From positions 1-44,681 of the forward strand of contig JAACFA010000035.1 in the NCBI GenBank assembly GCA_009937625.1: DNA of 44,681 nucleotides. The letters run 5' to 3'. The DNA is from Gammaproteobacteria bacterium (GTDB lineage: Bacteria; Pseudomonadota; Gammaproteobacteria; GCA-001735895). Positions 17,191-21,479 of this stretch are shown piece after piece. Positions within the stretch are counted from its first letter, which is position 1; every line of letters starts with the position of its first letter. A program made the translations under genes and the position numbers. The notes beneath the pieces are model-generated. The model saw only the letters and a program-made list of their open reading frames with translations. It searched no databases and was not told the origin of the DNA.

Positions 17191-17439
17191 ATGGCTACTG
17201 GAGCAGTTGATAATTGGCTCAATATTGATCAGTTCGGCGCAATCTATCCCTTCGTTGGCACGGAAGTATTATTGACGATTCTGGGATTTGCTTTCTGGAT
17301 CGGCTGGCATATCTACCAGTTGAAGAAGGAATCAGCCGAATTCAGGGAAGATATTGAAAACATCAAAAAGCAGGGCGGCCCCGGGAAAGTCCTCGAGGAC
17401 GAGGGCCGACGGGAAATGGAGGATACCGTGGGCCAGTAA
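17191..17439 (+). CDS. Small single-TM protein downstream of Amt 1
   Basis: GAGGAG RBS; 82 aa with one hydrophobic helix (VLLTILGFAFWIGWHIY) and a charged tail; followed by a terminator. Confidence 0.75.
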   Translation: MATGAVDNWLNIDQFGAIYPFVGTEVLLTILGFAFWIGWHIYQLKKESAEFREDIENIKKQGGPGKVLEDEGRREMEDTVGQ

Positions 17440-17475
17440 ACGCCCGTGGTATGCCGCCGCGTTTGTAGTAACCAG

Positions 17476-17505
17476 ACCCCTTCGATTTCGGTCGAAGGGG
17501 TTTTC
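17476..17505 (+). terminator. Rho-independent terminator
   Basis: ACCCCTTCGAT-TTCG-GTCGAAGGGGT followed by TTTC. Confidence 0.7.
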
Positions 17506-17525
17506 ATTATCTCCCCGGGTATTTG

Positions 17526-18026
17526 ATGATAAAAGATGCGCTCTCGGCTATACCGAGCCGGCCGGTCCTGTATATCGCGCCCGTTATCGTGATCGTGGTG
17601 CTGCTGCTTTATTACCGGGACCTGTATATCAAGTGCAGCGATATCAGGCAGCATCGTGAGTCACTAAACGAGTTGATACCGACACTGGACGCATCGGCGC
17701 AATTTCGGCTGGCGGAGTTCACCGGGTTTCGCTGGGATAAGGTCAGGATCATTGCGAAGCTCGAACCCGATGTCAGAACTGTCGAATGTCCCTTCGGCTG
17801 GAACTGGGTCAGTGGCCAAAGGGAATCGCTCGCAAATGCCGGATTATTGAGCGCATTGATATTTGCCCAGCAGGGCACGATCGTAAAATATCTCGAAGTG
17901 CGCAATGACGAAGTCGCGTTTCGTGGCGCCGACTCCAGTTTAACCCCGCAAACCGCGGTTTTTAGTGTCGCTACGAATTCCGATAGCGGCAGCGCCGTTG
18001 CTCTGATATTGAATAAAAAAAACTAG
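17526..18026 (+). CDS. Hypothetical membrane-anchored protein
   Basis: About 166 aa with one N-terminal TM helix (VLYIAPVIVIVVLLLYY); lower GC than neighbours. Confidence 0.6.
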   Translation: MIKDALSAIPSRPVLYIAPVIVIVVLLLYYRDLYIKCSDIRQHRESLNELIPTLDASAQFRLAEFTGFRWDKVRIIAKLEPDVRTVECPFGWNWVSGQRESLANAGLLSALIFAQQGTIVKYLEVRNDEVAFRGADSSLTPQTAVFSVATNSDSGSAVALILNKKN

Positions 18027-18251
18027 AGTCGTCGGAATATTCGGGCCGTTCCTGTGCAGCCCAAACATTGAAACAAGGTCGCCACAGGCAATCTCTATTT
18101 TCGAACCATGTTGCCGGCTTATCGGTACAGAAGATGTCGCTTTGGCGATGTTTTACCGATACGATAATCGTAAAATTGAGTGTGCGGTTCACGCGGCCGG
18201 GTCGCGCATCATAGCGCCGACATTCTAACTTGCTAACTGGGGGAATCAAAT

Positions 18252-19130
18252 TTGGCCACAATCATCGACGGCAAAGCATTTTCGGCTAACCTGCGCGGCG
18301 AAATCGCGCGCAAGGTTGCAATTCTCAAGCAGAATCATGCGCTGACGCCCGGACTCGCGGTAGTCCTGGTGGGGGAAGATCCGGCCAGCCAGGTTTACGT
18401 GCGCAGCAAGGGCAAGCAAACCGCCGAGGCGGGCATGAATTCCTACGAGCACAAGCTCGACGCGGCTACCAGTCAGGCAGATCTGCTGAGCTTGATCGAC
18501 CGGCTCAACGACGACCCCGACGTGCACGGCATCCTGGTGCAACTGCCCCTCCCGGGCCATATCGACGAGGAAGCGGTGATCAACTCGATTTCGGTAGACA
18601 AGGATGTCGATGGATTTCACCTTTCCAATGTCGGCAGGTTATCGATCGGCGCCGACGGTATCGTGCCCTGTACCCCTCTCGGTTCGTTGATGATGCTCAA
18701 GGATCATCTCGGCGACCTGTCGGGCATGAAGGCCATCGTCGTTGGCCGCTCCAACATCGTTGGCAAGCCAATGGCGGCACTCCTGTTAAAGGAAAGCTGC
18801 ACGGTGACGATCGCGCATTCGCGCACCCGCGACCTTCCCGGCGAATGCCGCCAGGCCGATATCCTGGTGGCCGCGGTCGGACGACCGGAAATGATCAAGG
18901 GTGACTGGATCAAGCCCGGCGCCACGGTAATCGACGTCGGTATCAACCGCATCGAAAACGAAGACGGCAGTACGCGCCTGGTGGGCGACGTCGAGTTCGA
19001 TAGCGCCGCCGAGGTTGCCGCTGCGATTACGCCGGTGCCCGGTGGCGTCGGTCCGATGACCATTGCCTGCCTGTTGCACAATACTATGCAGCAGGCCTGC
19101 CGGTTGAATGGCGTCGAGGTGCCGGAGTAA
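18252..19130 (+). CDS. folD: Bifunctional methylene-THF dehydrogenase/cyclohydrolase
   Basis: [55 protein letters not shown] and [14 protein letters not shown] start. Confidence 0.96.
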
Positions 19131-19212
19131 GGCGGGCCGGTTCTGTTCGAGGTCCATCTAGCCTGTTAAACATGGTAAATTCGGGTCGTTTCGTACCTGT
19201 GCCGGGCTGCTT

Positions 19213-19680
19213 ATGTCCCCGATCCTGAAACGTAGTTTGATATTTATAGTCTTGATGGCGGCCGGGCTGGTGTTGTACATGTCCTGGTACAACATCAAGG
19301 CTGAACGTTTTAACGAGACTGCAATTCCCTACCTGGAACAGGCCCTGCCAAAGTTAACCAGCTGGCAATATCCAGAACTCGAGATGCTGTTGTCTCCTAC
19401 GGCAAAGACCGTATTTGCATCCGATAAAGTTCGGGCTGCTTATCAAGAGTTTAGCCAGTTAGGGCAGCTGCAATCGATGAGCCGACCCGAATTCATGGGA
19501 AATCGCTCCGAGACTTTCGAGGAGCTGGGGGATGTCGAGTTAATCGCCTACCAGGTGCAGCTGGAGTTCGAAACCGGACCGGCCGTGATAAAACTGAACC
19601 TGGCCAGCGACGGCCAGCGCTACTACATCCATCACTTCGGTATTCACTCGCATATATTCGCCGATCACGACGATTCCTAG
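19213..19680 (+). CDS. Hypothetical exported or membrane-anchored protein
   Basis: 155 aa with an N-terminal TM/signal segment; no confident family assignment. Confidence 0.6.
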   Translation: MSPILKRSLIFIVLMAAGLVLYMSWYNIKAERFNETAIPYLEQALPKLTSWQYPELEMLLSPTAKTVFASDKVRAAYQEFSQLGQLQSMSRPEFMGNRSETFEELGDVELIAYQVQLEFETGPAVIKLNLASDGQRYYIHHFGIHSHIFADHDDS

Positions 19681-19712
19681 GCTTAATTTCCGCAGCCATT
19701 GCATGGTCATAG

Positions 19713-19727
19713 GCACCAACATGGTGC
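19713..19727. promoter_or_regulatory. Candidate NtrC-type binding site upstream of amt 2
   Basis: GCACC-AACAT-GGTGC matches the GCACC-N5-GGTGC core of NtrC boxes, about 230 nt upstream of the ATG. Confidence 0.4.
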
Positions 19728-19954
19728 GAAAATTCTTTGTAAAACAAGAACATGGCTATCGTTATATAGATTGGTTATGATTGCGCGGTGCGGCCGGTGG
19801 CACTGCCGGAAGCCCGATAATAATTAAGCGCTCCAGGATCGATATGTGGCGGCCGCCGACCGGCCGGCATGGGCAAACGGACCGCAATCGCGGGAAGCAT
19901 TTGGATTACTGTTGGAGAACAGACACTATAACTTAACTAATAGGGGGAGGCGTA

Positions 19955-21259
19955 ATGACACCTGCAGAACTAGAGTCCGCGTTAACGTGGGCCAACACGA
20001 TAAACCTCGAGGTTTACTATTACTGGTGTACCGCCATCATGATCCTGATCCACGCGGGCTTCATGATGTACGAGATGGGCGCTTCGAGAGTCAAGCACAC
20101 GCTCGCCGCCGGTACCAAGAACGTCCTGGCATTTGCCTACATGATCCCGACTTTCTGGATGTTCGGATGGTGGATCTACCTGGCGATGTACCAGGGTTTC
20201 ACGCCCGACTGGGAAGCCGGCGCGGGTGGCGTACCCTGGGGCGATAGCATGGGCCCGAATCTGCAGGATAACGCTTCCGGCGTATTCTGGGGCGCGTTTA
20301 CGCTGTTTGCCTGTACCACCGCTTCGATCATGTCAGGCGCGGTTATCGAGCGCATCCGTATGACCGCCTTCATTCTCCTCGCGGTTATTCTCGGCTCGGT
20401 GGTGTGGATCCTGTCCGCGTCCTGGGGCTGGCATTACGCCGGCTGGATGGTCACCGACTGGGGTTACCACGACTTCGGCGCCTCCGGTGTGGTGCACATC
20501 ATTTCGGGTTTCTTCGCACTGGGCGTGCTGATCCATCTCGGCCCGCGTATTGGCAAGTTCAACGCCGACGGCTCGGCCAATGTGATCCGCGGCCATAGCC
20601 TGCCGATGACCATGGTTGGATTGATGCTGATCGTGACCGGCTTCTTCGGCTTCCTCGGTGGTTGCCTGTTCTACGGCGGCGGTGGCCCGACCGGTATCGG
20701 TCAGTGGACCAATATCTATGGTATGCCGACCACGCTCTCGGCTATCTGTTTCAACACCTTGATGGGTATCGCAGGTGGCATGATCGGAGCCTATACCAAG
20801 ACTCGCGATCCCTTCTGGATGATGTCGGGCGCACTTTGCGGCGTTATTTCGGTCGCAGCCGGCATGGACCTTTACTACCCGGGTCTCGCCTTCGTACTCG
20901 CCTTTGTGGGTGGCGTGATTGGACCGATGGCGGCGCAATTCGTCGAAAAGATGGGTATCGACGACGCGGTTGGCGCGGTCTCGGTGCATGGCGTCTGCGG
21001 CATCCTCGGGCTGGTGTTTGCCGGTATTTTCCTCGGCGGCTATCCCCAGTTTGCGGATAATATTCCGTCGATCACCTTCGGCGGCCAGTTCAAGGGCATG
21101 ATCGTTATGGTCCTGCTCGGTTTTATACCGGGATTCGTGTTCGCCTGGATCTTCAAGGCACTGGGTATTCTGCGCGCCAGCGACGGCGTCCAGGAAGTCG
21201 GTATGGATGTCGAAATCGAAGCCATGGCCTACCCTGAAGACATCAAGACAATCAACTAG
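19955..21259 (+). CDS. amt: Amt/Mep/Rh-family transporter 2 (divergent; probable methylamine-type substrate)
   Basis: HAGFMMYEMG, SGAVIERIR, HDFGASGVVH, LGPRIGKF and GIDDAVGAVSVHG; GGGAGG RBS. Confidence 0.88.
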   Translation: MTPAELESALTWANTINLEVYYYWCTAIMILIHAGFMMYEMGASRVKHTLAAGTKNVLAFAYMIPTFWMFGWWIYLAMYQGFTPDWEAGAGGVPWGDSMGPNLQDNASGVFWGAFTLFACTTASIMSGAVIERIRMTAFILLAVILGSVVWILSASWGWHYAGWMVTDWGYHDFGASGVVHIISGFFALGVLIHLGPRIGKFNADGSANVIRGHSLPMTMVGLMLIVTGFFGFLGGCLFYGGGGPTGIGQWTNIYGMPTTLSAICFNTLMGIAGGMIGAYTKTRDPFWMMSGALCGVISVAAGMDLYYPGLAFVLAFVGGVIGPMAAQFVEKMGIDDAVGAVSVHGVCGILGLVFAGIFLGGYPQFADNIPSITFGGQFKGMIVMVLLGFIPGFVFAWIFKALGILRASDGVQEVGMDVEIEAMAYPEDIKTIN

Positions 21260-21269
21260 GAGAATAAAT

Positions 21270-21479
21270 ATGTTTAACTCAAGTCCAATCGAAACCTGGG
21301 ACGGCGCGGCAGCTTTCTTCTCCTTCGCCGGATCCGCCGGTATCTGGTTCTGGATTGCCGTAATCCTGTGTATCGTTCCGCTGTTCGTGACGCTGAAGAC
21401 CGAGAATCATCATGAAACTCAGCACAAGTTCAGAAGCGACGATAGCGACAGTACGCACGGTGTTGAAAAAGGCAGTTAG
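21270..21479 (+). CDS. Small single-TM protein downstream of Amt 2 (69 aa)
   Basis: AGGAG RBS overlapping the amt stop and ATG at 21270; MFNSSPIETWDGAAAFFSFAGSAGIWFWIAVILCIVPLFVTLKTENHHE...; followed by a terminator. Confidence 0.75.
   Translation: MFNSSPIETWDGAAAFFSFAGSAGIWFWIAVILCIVPLFVTLKTENHHETQHKFRSDDSDSTHGVEKGS

Follow-up and report, generated by a model that had tools for sequence, protein, structure and literature searches.

Two genes for Amt-family channels, amt1 and amt2, lie in the window (the whole stretch of gammaproteobacterial DNA analysed here, 44,681 nucleotides), and each is directly followed by a small gene with which it is obligately paired. We consider it likely that the products of these genes, small1 and small2, are single-pass inner-membrane proteins of one superfamily that serve as stoichiometric accessory (beta-type) subunits, each of its own Amt channel. 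Channels of the Amt/Mep/Rh superfamily are textbook homotrimers, and their known bacterial control is exerted by the soluble PII protein GlnK. The features referred to below are the following.

15789..17153, + strand: amt1, 454 aa, carrying FGWWIY (TM2) and IERIR (ICL2), of a divergent Amt/Mep/Rh subfamily
17177..17182, + strand: Shine-Dalgarno site of small1, GAGGAG, 8 nt upstream of the ATG, from sequence
17191..17439, + strand: small1, 82 aa, predicted N-out/C-in single-pass membrane protein, proposed partner of amt1
17474..17508, + strand: intrinsic terminator of small1, 13-bp hairpin (17474-17503), then UUUUCAUU
19955..21259, + strand: amt2, 434 aa, paralogue within the Amt subfamily of amt1
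21258..21262, + strand: Shine-Dalgarno site of small2, AGGAG, overlapping the amt2 stop codon, from sequence
21270..21479, + strand: small2, 69 aa, predicted N-out/C-in single-pass membrane protein, proposed partner of amt2
21497..21534, + strand: intrinsic terminator of small2, 13-bp hairpin (21497-21526), then U8

Two divergent channels and the genes that follow them

Both channels belong to the Amt/Mep/Rh family, scoring 189 bits (amt1) and 204 bits (amt2) against PF00909 at a cut-off of 23.2, and both fall far below the cut-offs of the narrower models: 183 and 206 bits versus 343 for TIGR00836 (amt), 152 and 183 versus 514 for TIGR03644, with amt1 unmatched by NF007947 (AmtB) and amt2 at 49 bits versus 657. 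The family-defining residues, i.e., the twin histidines, the aspartate preceding the first histidine and the ExxGxD of the C-terminal region (in part after PMC4852598), are all present, with D170, H178, H353 and E423-x-x-G426-x-D428 invariant both in an alignment with the genome's own AmtB and in 31 orthologues. The two paralogues are 45% identical to each other, amt1 is 30% identical to the AmtB of the same genome, and orthologues of amt2 share 57-99% identity across 74 metagenome loci. The solved chains nearest to amt1 are 6eu6 and 8qj3/8qpf (the latter 644-661 aa), with no further chain at E<=1e-10; we take them to be Amt proteins of the sensor type, to which an output domain is fused. This proximity would favour a reading in which the Amt paralogues are sensors, not transporters, and the small protein takes part in the signalling output. 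We find that reading improbable, because amt1, amt2 and the small proteins carry no fused output domain, the residues matching the twin histidines and conserved aspartate of the genome's own AmtB are kept, and the context in the window is catabolic rather than regulatory.

The small1 frame runs from the ATG at 17191, 37 nt past the amt1 stop, to the stop codon at 17437-17439, and the ATG of small2 at 21270 is separated from amt2 by an intergenic gap of 10 nt. A longer small2 frame (90 aa, ATG at 21207) was rejected: all 42 of the 42 homologues begin at or near MFNSSPIE, and therefore the 69-aa version was adopted. In both pairs, a terminator is present only 3' of the small gene; the small1 hairpin has a dG of -28.6 kcal/mol and a z of -3.8, the small2 hairpin has a z of -5.1, and for each of the two terminators none of 200 shuffles folded equally well. 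The initial annotation, which had placed 82-aa and 69-aa ORFs behind amt1 and amt2, each with a strong ribosome-binding site and each followed by a terminator, is thus borne out in all of these details, coordinates included. Contigs from RNA libraries of one study bridge both amt/small junctions and lend weak support; being contigs, they may reflect DNA carry-over. Each small gene is co-transcribed with its own Amt clade, and it is probably also translationally coupled to its amt gene. Shine-Dalgarno-like sites were also found upstream of small-gene homologues in other genomes.

Pairing, conservation and homology of the small genes

Matches to the small1 and small2 profiles were sought in a sample of 300 genomes. 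In all 13 matching genomes of other families, small1 lies directly after an amt1 orthologue (52-73% identity); one of these genomes, G296, is unpublished, and without it the count is 12/12. Among the 80 best amt1-type loci (GTDB species), small1 was found downstream on the same strand in 79, the sole miss being locus L038, where the contig ends 177 nt past amt. The carriers of amt1-type loci include Gamma- and Alphaproteobacteria (among them the cultured Roseovarius and Maritimibacter), Latescibacterota and Gemmatimonadetes. For small2, the gene follows an amt2 orthologue in 5/5 genomes with a credible match and in 61/61 amt2-type metagenome loci with room for it, 13 of the 74 loci having been left out with a contig end at most 213 nt past amt; small1 is present in 6/6 amt1-type loci of the same metagenome set. 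A third Amt clade has a third small variant at 3 of 4 loci, and the remaining locus is a contig end. Within the genome from which the window comes, each small profile has a single match. Conservation of the small ORFs beside amt homologues, which had been proposed as a check, is therefore evident for both types, and since the flanking genes vary widely between loci, amt and its small gene form a two-gene module.

At 90% identity, the homologues fall into 266 (small1) and 42 (small2) clusters, and small1 has 363 representatives at 50% identity. All unsaturated small1 pairs have a dN/dS of 0.03-0.34 with synonymous change near saturation, and the reading frame, start codon and Shine-Dalgarno site are kept in homologues at 32-73% protein identity. 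No Rfam match was found within 15000-22200. These observations speak against the notion that the small ORFs are untranslated and that the conserved stretch is a 3' UTR or a regulatory RNA, to which we assign a negligible probability; small1 and small2 are real, conserved genes.

The two small proteins had been noted to share a layout ([VI][DE]xW, an aromatic-x-G turn, a Trp-containing TM helix and LKxE), which BLASTP of small1 versus small2 did not detect. Profile comparison with hhalign gave 8% with shallow profiles, and 42.8% and 94.5% (E 7.6e-8, 59 columns) in two comparisons of diverse alignments, which recovered the layout in the register that had been proposed. Cross-family HMM matches occurred only at Amt-adjacent ORFs (E of 6.7e-5, 8.9e-4 and 3.4e-3). 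By these profile comparisons, small1 and small2 are judged to be remote homologues within one superfamily, which is fast-evolving and so far unnamed. Neither protein matched any Pfam-A or NCBIfam family at E<=0.01, and a search of Pfam and NCBIfam at E<=1 (31 + 16 members) gave sub-threshold matches only, the best being DUF4381 (8/31 members, E 3e-4). Among named ESM-Atlas clusters, CcoQ comes closest, with a chance-level score of 0.77. The small genes are annotated merely as hypothetical proteins, and a family model is absent.

Topology and the modelled complex

The mean number of K+R residues in the N-terminal flank is 0.07 for small1 and 0.02 for small2, compared to about 2.5 in the C-terminal flank, and the C side is the richer one in 80/80 small1 and 49/50 small2 sequences. 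The predicted topology of both is single-pass, with the N-terminus periplasmic and the C-terminus cytoplasmic. The best 19-residue Kyte-Doolittle window scores 1.94 (small1) and 2.42 (small2); the AF2 model of small1 has a coil (1-23) and helices at 24-60 and 64-80, and that of small2 has helices at 8-17 and 23-53. With fewer than 100 residues and one TM helix, both proteins are of the kind of small single-pass accessory subunits, and the gaps, terminator position and conserved adjacency place them in the same operon as their proposed partners, as is typical of that kind.

The complex was modelled for amt1 and small1 alone as a 1:1 pair, whereas native Amt is a trimer, and a clash with the neighbouring subunit is possible. 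Three runs gave an ipSAE of 0.71, 0.75 and 0.76, compared to 0.00 for the best of three controls, with a partner pLDDT of at least 76 and at least 76% of contacts in common; the mark used for ipSAE is reached by 116/157 solved complexes and 2/215 mismatched pairs, an approximate calibration, our own alignments having been used here. The model, which supports binding of small1 to amt1, has small1 in contact with TM2, the first part of TM4, the loops ICL1 and ICL2, and the Amt C-terminal region. Within the TM segment of small1 (24-48), the mean top-residue frequency is 0.72 at the 13 contact positions versus 0.40 at the 12 others (Mann-Whitney p 0.013), a comparison that is not fully independent, as the alignment from which the conserved helix face was defined also went into the model.

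In a test for clade-specific co-adaptation, Amt positions that are conserved within the amt1 clade but differ in the amt2 clade showed no enrichment at contacts (3/42 versus 62/412, Fisher p 0.96). The lack of signal in this test would suit small membrane peptides that act independently of the channel, in some other role, and have no more than the operon in common with it. We consider this very improbable, even more so than the sensor reading, given that adjacency is kept across phyla though all other neighbours change, that each of the three Amt clades keeps its own variant, and that the controls of the complex model are at 0.00.

The small protein could also be tied to Amt without being a permanent subunit, either as an insertion or trimer-assembly factor or as a conditional, state-dependent regulator. 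Obligate gene pairing is equally compatible with such a partner and with a stable subunit, the variable cytoplasmic tail would suit lineage-specific regulatory input, and conditional regulation of Amt by a small protein has a precedent in sP36 (PMC10714827). Conversely, the complex was predicted confidently and reproducibly, with an extensive intramembrane interface, a single strongly conserved helix face is typical for permanent helix packing, and searches of Pfam and NCBIfam revealed neither a sensory nor an enzymatic domain in the small ORFs. We therefore regard a non-permanent partner as unlikely, if less so than the two preceding alternatives.

As an accessory subunit, small1 would pack its conserved helix face (E25, L28, G32, W36, W39/H40, Q43 and E47) onto TM2 and the beginning of TM4, with E47 beside ICL2 (the IERIR segment), and its invariant periplasmic motif W..G.xYPFxGxE on the extended TM2-TM3 loop. 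The variable cytoplasmic tail would rest on the ExxGxD-bearing C-terminal region of Amt. The tail is poorly conserved (top-residue frequencies mostly 0.2-0.5 from position 48) and many homologues are merely 55-64 aa long; thus, this modelled contact is not a universal core of the function. The small subunit would stabilise or assemble the channel or set its gating state, and we infer that a role in assembly or gating is most likely. A more elaborate version is possible but doubtful: channels of this subfamily would be obligate alpha3beta3 heteromers, in which the aromatic motif (W...G-x-Y-P-F-x-G-x-E) on the TM2-TM3 loop helps to build the outer vestibule and tunes recruitment of methylated ammonium; the helix and tail would hold ICL1 and ICL2 together with the C-terminal region in a clamp, and PII control would be replaced by this built-in subunit. 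The proposal in the initial annotation of an undescribed accessory or regulator family is upheld by the pairing across phyla, the remote homology, the absence of a Pfam or NCBIfam family and the controlled complex model.

Known systems and methylated-amine use

A PF00543 search of the whole genome found no PII gene on the window contig (C78) and four matches elsewhere (contigs C254, C38, C157 and C91); the copy on C254 adjoins a canonical amtB, forming a glnK-amtB pair, and no PF00543 gene adjoins amt1 or amt2. The description of the small ORFs as standing "instead of glnK" thus holds at these two loci and fails for the genome as a whole. Like AmtB-GlnK, the pairs are two-gene operons of an Amt-family channel and a small partner thought to be active at the cytoplasmic face. 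Here, however, the partner lacks a PII domain and is predicted to span the membrane once, its gene is downstream of amt and not upstream, the modelled site is on lipid-facing TM2/TM4 and the C-terminal region rather than at the pore exit, and the identity of amt1 to the genome's own AmtB is low.

KdpF, AcrZ, MgtS and CcoQ/FixQ (of cbb3 oxidase) resemble small1 and small2 in having fewer than 100 residues and one TM helix and in being encoded with or near their partners; KdpF, AcrZ and MgtS are small single-pass transporter-binding proteins. None of the four shows a sequence relationship to small1 or small2 in Pfam, NCBIfam or ESM-Atlas, and we know of none that partners an Amt channel. A literature search found no report of such small single-pass proteins partnering an Amt channel. 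The 61-aa sP36 of Methanosarcina mazei is likewise a small protein acting on Amt: it is reported to bind AmtB1 and modulate transport; by the same account it is cytoplasmic, moves to the membrane upon ammonium upshift and mediates GlnK1 binding (PMC10714827). Binding in our case is modelled, and the predicted TM helix sets small1 and small2 apart from sP36 as described there. The likeness of the modelled small1 site (TM2, the first part of TM4, ICL1, ICL2 and the C-terminal region) to that of the fungal Mep2 autoinhibitory segment is positional; that segment lies within the same chain and is phosphorylation-controlled, whereas small1 would be a chain of its own, anchored in the membrane.

The amt/small pairs of the window belong to a methylamine-utilisation cluster, with gmaS, mgsABC, folD and tmm as neighbours, which suggests a methylamine substrate for these channels. 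The earlier designation of the channels as alkylamine-type agrees with these neighbours; across the family it is less well matched, with mgsB/mgsC upstream of amt1 orthologues in only 13/80 loci, unrelated neighbours elsewhere, and most amt1-type loci without methylamine genes within 2.5 kb. The transporter may be dedicated to methylated-amine catabolism and operate without PII (GlnK) control; alternatively, the pair could serve in ammonium release during that catabolism.

In the sea, methylated amines are important as sources of nitrogen and carbon, and the small partner, if real, would point to a still poorly defined route for their uptake in carriers that include abundant marine Gamma- and Alphaproteobacteria as well as Latescibacterota and Gemmatimonadetes. 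Since cultured Roseovarius and Maritimibacter carry the amt/small pair, the hypothesis is directly testable, and a profile built from the small-family alignments would permit systematic annotation. A membrane-embedded partner across an Amt subfamily in several phyla would, if true, be a new architectural class in the Amt/Mep/Rh superfamily, and with an alpha3beta3 heteromer whose small subunit helps to form the vestibule, an architecture with accessory subunits would be seen there for the first time.

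Genomic pairing of the small ORFs with Amt genes

The region around the two paralogous Amt genes of the window, amt1 and amt2, is a methylated-amine utilisation cluster, and a small ORF lies downstream of each amt gene (small1, 82 aa, and small2, 69 aa). The labels gmaS and mgsABC used here are our interpretation of domain hits and gene order, and were not assigned by any tool.

Genes around amt1 and amt2 (window positions, strand, product)
10416-11894, +, glutamine-synthetase-type ligase (gmaS-like)
12003-15133, +, three N-methylglutamate-synthase-like subunits (GATase, GXGXG and Glu_synthase domains)
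15145-15534, +, 129-aa ORF without family
15789-17153, +, amt1
17191-17439, +, small1
17523-18026, +, 167-aa ORF without family
18252-19130, +, folD
19213-19680, +, 155-aa ORF without family
19955-21259, +, amt2
21270-21479, +, small2
21579-21959, -, cupin gene
22207-23550, -, trimethylamine monooxygenase (NF058570, 840 bits versus a cut-off of 675)
23760-24392, +, XRE/cupin regulator

The outstanding feature of the small ORFs is their pairing with Amt genes, which was examined in both directions, from the small proteins to amt and from amt to the small proteins. For the small proteins, 300 genomes sampled evenly across the class were searched. Thirteen genomes from other families had a small1-profile match, and in all 13 it comes immediately after an amt1 orthologue (52-73% identity); this count includes the unpublished genome G296, without which it is 12 of 12, and leaves out genome G248, which was not scorable. 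The small2 profile produced five credible matches in this sample, 5/5 of them directly after an amt2 orthologue (53-89% identity). Three further small2-profile matches (E 0.003-0.01) were rejected as spurious, because the ORFs that contain them are 627, 629 and 247 aa long and have no neighbouring Amt gene.

In the opposite direction, 79 of the best 80 amt1-type loci of GTDB species genomes (67-91% identity) are followed immediately, in the same orientation, by an ORF of the small1 family (E from 3e-35 to 1e-18, 4191 ORFs searched), and the sequence of the only locus without one (L038) stops 177 nt past amt. The sources of amt1-type loci include Arenicellales, Thiotrichales, Acidiferrobacterales, Roseovarius, Maritimibacter, Hyphomicrobium, Rhodospirillales and Geminicoccaceae among Gammaproteobacteria and Alphaproteobacteria, as well as Latescibacterota and Gemmatimonadetes. 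Cultured strains with the pair include Roseovarius litoreus DSM 28249, R. atlanticus and Maritimibacter sp. 55A14. A metagenome scan with amt2 yielded 74 amt2-type loci (57-99% identity); the contig ends at most 213 nt from amt in 13 of these, and a small2-type ORF is directly downstream in the other 61/61. The six remaining loci of the scan are amt1-type, and small1 is present in all six. An amt2 search of the 300-genome sample returned 22 subfamily genes outside the window, namely 13 amt1-type, 5 amt2-type and 4 third-clade genes, with every amt1-type and amt2-type gene paired with a small gene. The initial annotation had proposed a family of small single-TM accessory or regulatory proteins for Amt channels; the small ORFs collected downstream of homologous amt genes are indeed conserved next to amt (79/80, 61/61, 13/13 and 5/5).

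Homologues of mgsB/mgsC are found upstream in 13 of the best 80 amt1-type loci, and genes for porins, TRAP or ABC transporters and oxidoreductases are among the neighbours at other amt1-type loci, according to a survey that used crude ORF picking and left several ORFs without family. Because the flanking genes are not conserved, amt and its small gene behave as a mobile two-gene module.

The third Amt clade (54-55% identity to amt2) has a third small-ORF type, of 53-57 aa, after three of its four genes, the fourth gene being at a contig end. This type (L116:2867-3034, +; L117:1289-1456, -; L132:1288-1458, -; also L176 and L177) starts with MG[YF]PF, continues with a TWNV motif, a G-rich turn and one TM helix, and carries its own SD site and terminator. 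At L176 and L177 it is upstream of an amt2-type gene, suggesting tandem amt3-small3-amt2 arrays.

Several further arrangements were observed. In a genome of another family (G262:C17:17699-22430; L024, L015, L113, L134) both pairs are about 3 kb apart, amt2-small2 followed by amt1-small1, which is the opposite of the order in the window; small1 is upstream of amt2, as in the window, on metagenome contigs L142, L143, L147, L157 and L181. The position of the 129-aa ORF, between the last N-methylglutamate-synthase-like gene and amt1, is kept in 11 of the best 80 amt1-type loci (73-93% identity); the ORF has no Pfam or NCBIfam match. The 167-aa ORF, just 3' of the small1 terminator, has a hydrophobic N-terminal stretch and homologues (29-57% identity) downstream of small1 in 10 of these 80 loci; homologues of the 155-aa ORF between folD and amt2, which also has a hydrophobic N-terminus, occupy such a position in 3 of the 80.

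Twelve longer proteins matched in a search for fused Amt-small proteins, six of them also with PF00909 (P0314, P0315, P0318, P0319, P0320 and P0322), and were rejected as true fusions. These six are singleton metagenome gene calls from one source. In the apparent fusions, one ORF runs from an Amt C-terminus through an Arg-rich linker into a complete small1-type sequence that keeps the internal small-protein Met; they look like read-through or frameshift artefacts and count only as further cases of adjacency. The N-out topology of the small protein likewise speaks against a direct fusion.

Coding status, homology and topology of the small proteins

Several sequence features show that small1 and small2 are real genes. 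The ORFs, their ribosome-binding sites and their terminators match the description in the initial annotation. amt2 and small2 are 10 nt apart, and the small2 SD site overlaps the amt2 stop codon, suggesting translational coupling. Terminator-like hairpins are found 3' of the small genes only (13 bp each, z -3.8 and -5.1), and 0 of 200 shuffles fold equally well for both hairpins. The dN/dS of small1 is 0.03-0.34 in every pair with unsaturated synonymous change, and SD-like sequences are present upstream of the small-protein homologues. The RNA evidence for the amt/small pairs, i.e., contigs from RNA libraries of four runs, is weak: these contigs may include DNA carry-over, because one of them (X1) covers all 30 bins, intergenic DNA included, and another (X6) extends just 26 nt into small2 and was left out of the bridging count.

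Homologues of small1 form 266 clusters at 90% identity, the best 120 of which are 81-82 aa long and 73-98% identical. Against 1.84 billion representatives (50% identity), the small1 profile had 363 matches at E<=1e-3, of which 192 reach E<=1e-10, with a length of 50-157 aa in all of the best 150. Homologues of small2 form 42 clusters of 55-71 aa. Wherever the source supplies a name for a homologue of either protein, it is "hypothetical protein". Neither small1 nor small2 has a Pfam or NCBIfam match, permissive family scans of 31 and 16 members of the small families produced sub-threshold hits only, and an Rfam search of 15000-22200 found no match at E<=0.1. The 30 nearest clusters in the ESM Atlas are all unnamed hypothetical proteins, and the nearest named cluster, CcoQ, has a score of 0.77, which is at chance level.

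BLASTP found no alignment between small1 and small2. The hhalign value for this pair climbs with alignment diversity, from 8% for shallow profiles to 42.8% and then 94.5% for the most diverse (E 7.6e-8, 59 columns), and the alignment always uses the register of the shared layout recognised in the initial annotation (ExW, aromatic-x-F/W-x-G, TM helix, K-x-E). Cross-family HMM hits are restricted to Amt-adjacent small ORFs. The two proteins are remote homologues, with a superfamily core (small1 numbering) of W9, G16, Y19-P20-F21, G23, E25, G32, W36, H40, Q43 and E47.

Both families have a single strongly hydrophobic segment, preceded by a mean of 0.07 (small1) or 0.02 (small2) Lys/Arg residues and followed by about 2.5 in the next 15 residues. 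The positive-inside rule predicts an N-out/C-in topology for 80 of 80 small1 and 49 of 50 small2 sequences. AF2 predicts a coil (1-23), a helix (24-60), a turn and a second helix (64-80) for small1 (pLDDT 79.7), and helices at 8-17 and 23-53 for small2 (pLDDT 63.8).

The Amt subfamily and its modelled complex with small1

The Amt subfamily of amt1 and amt2 is unusual and divergent: it has 30% identity to the canonical AmtB of the same genome and reaches none of the NCBIfam cut-offs for Amt proteins. Among solved structures, amt1 is nearest not to AmtB but to 6eu6 and to 8qj3/8qpf (644-661 aa), the only chains at E<=1e-10, which are sensor-type Amt proteins. There is no gene for PII, the GlnK-type regulator, in the window, and the four PF00543 matches of the genome are all on other contigs, in agreement with the earlier claim that none stands beside amt1 or amt2. 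One of these matches immediately precedes the third Amt gene, a canonical one, with which it forms a glnK-amtB operon (contig C254 of the window's genome, G000; L001:1051-2700). Since the genome has this classical pair, amt1 and amt2 are additional Amt paralogues whose companion is of another kind.

RNA-library contigs of three runs have 48 extra letters at 16003/16004, in the TM2-TM3 loop of amt1. This insertion is a strain variant that lengthens the periplasmic loop by 16 codons, and it fits the longer TM2-TM3 loop of most amt1 orthologues.

A 1:1 complex of amt1 and small1 was modelled with both chains as 31-row alignments in matching locus order. The interface score (ipSAE) was 0.71, 0.75 and 0.76, versus 0.00 for the best of three controls, with a partner pLDDT of 76 or more and at least 76% of contacts shared between runs. 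Of 157 solved complexes, 116 reached the mark, as did 2 of 215 mismatched pairs; these counts are rough because our own alignments were used. In the model, small1 residues 25-47 contact Amt 57-64 and 132-138, residues 12-23 contact Amt 75-90, 98 and 102, and residues 50-82 contact Amt 415-439. The Amt residues that face invariant small1 positions include L57, T61, F64, R132 and W137. The contacted segments, named by alignment with the genome's own AmtB and by the motif names in excerpts of PMC4852598, are TM2, ICL2 (the "ER" motif, here IERIR) with the start of TM4, the extended periplasmic TM2-TM3 loop, and the C-terminal region including the ExxGxD motif (E423, G426, D428). According to the same excerpts, this is where the autoinhibitory segment of Mep2 docks, and the segment is linked there with the C-terminal region; access to the modelled site in the Amt trimer is therefore plausible.

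The orientation of small1 in the complex is the same as in the independent topology prediction. The 13 contact positions of its TM helix are markedly more conserved than the 12 others (mean top-residue frequency 0.72 versus 0.40, p 0.013), and the near-invariant residues are all on one helix face. A test for clade-specific co-adaptation was negative: positions of Amt that are conserved across the amt1 clade and differ in the amt2 clade show no enrichment at the modelled interface (3/42 versus 62/412, p 0.96). The cytoplasmic tail of the small protein is poorly conserved and often short, so the modelled contact of the tail with the C-terminal region cannot be the conserved core. That core consists of E47, the conserved helix face and the motif on the periplasmic side.

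Known systems and predicted function

Full-text literature searches did not turn up any single-pass protein described as an Amt partner. The nearest known systems are the AmtB-GlnK pair, the soluble archaeal small protein sP36 (PMC10714827), generic small single-pass transporter partners and, by position, the Mep2 autoinhibitory segment, none with homology to the small proteins as far as tested. We conclude that the small proteins are most likely a new accessory subunit family of the divergent Amt subfamily, with a role that is most likely structural or gating-related.

Excerpts of PMC7574528 list amt among the recurring genes of Rhodobacteraceae TMA/DMA/MMA clusters and name no small ORF. This recurrence, together with the context in the window, points to a methylated amine as the substrate. 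TmaT is a BCCT-family TMA transporter in excerpts of PMC11708041, where Amt goes unmentioned. As an alternative to substrate uptake, the channel may export ammonium during methylamine catabolism. The most likely prediction is that the Amt channel of the pair serves methylated-amine metabolism, without PII control.
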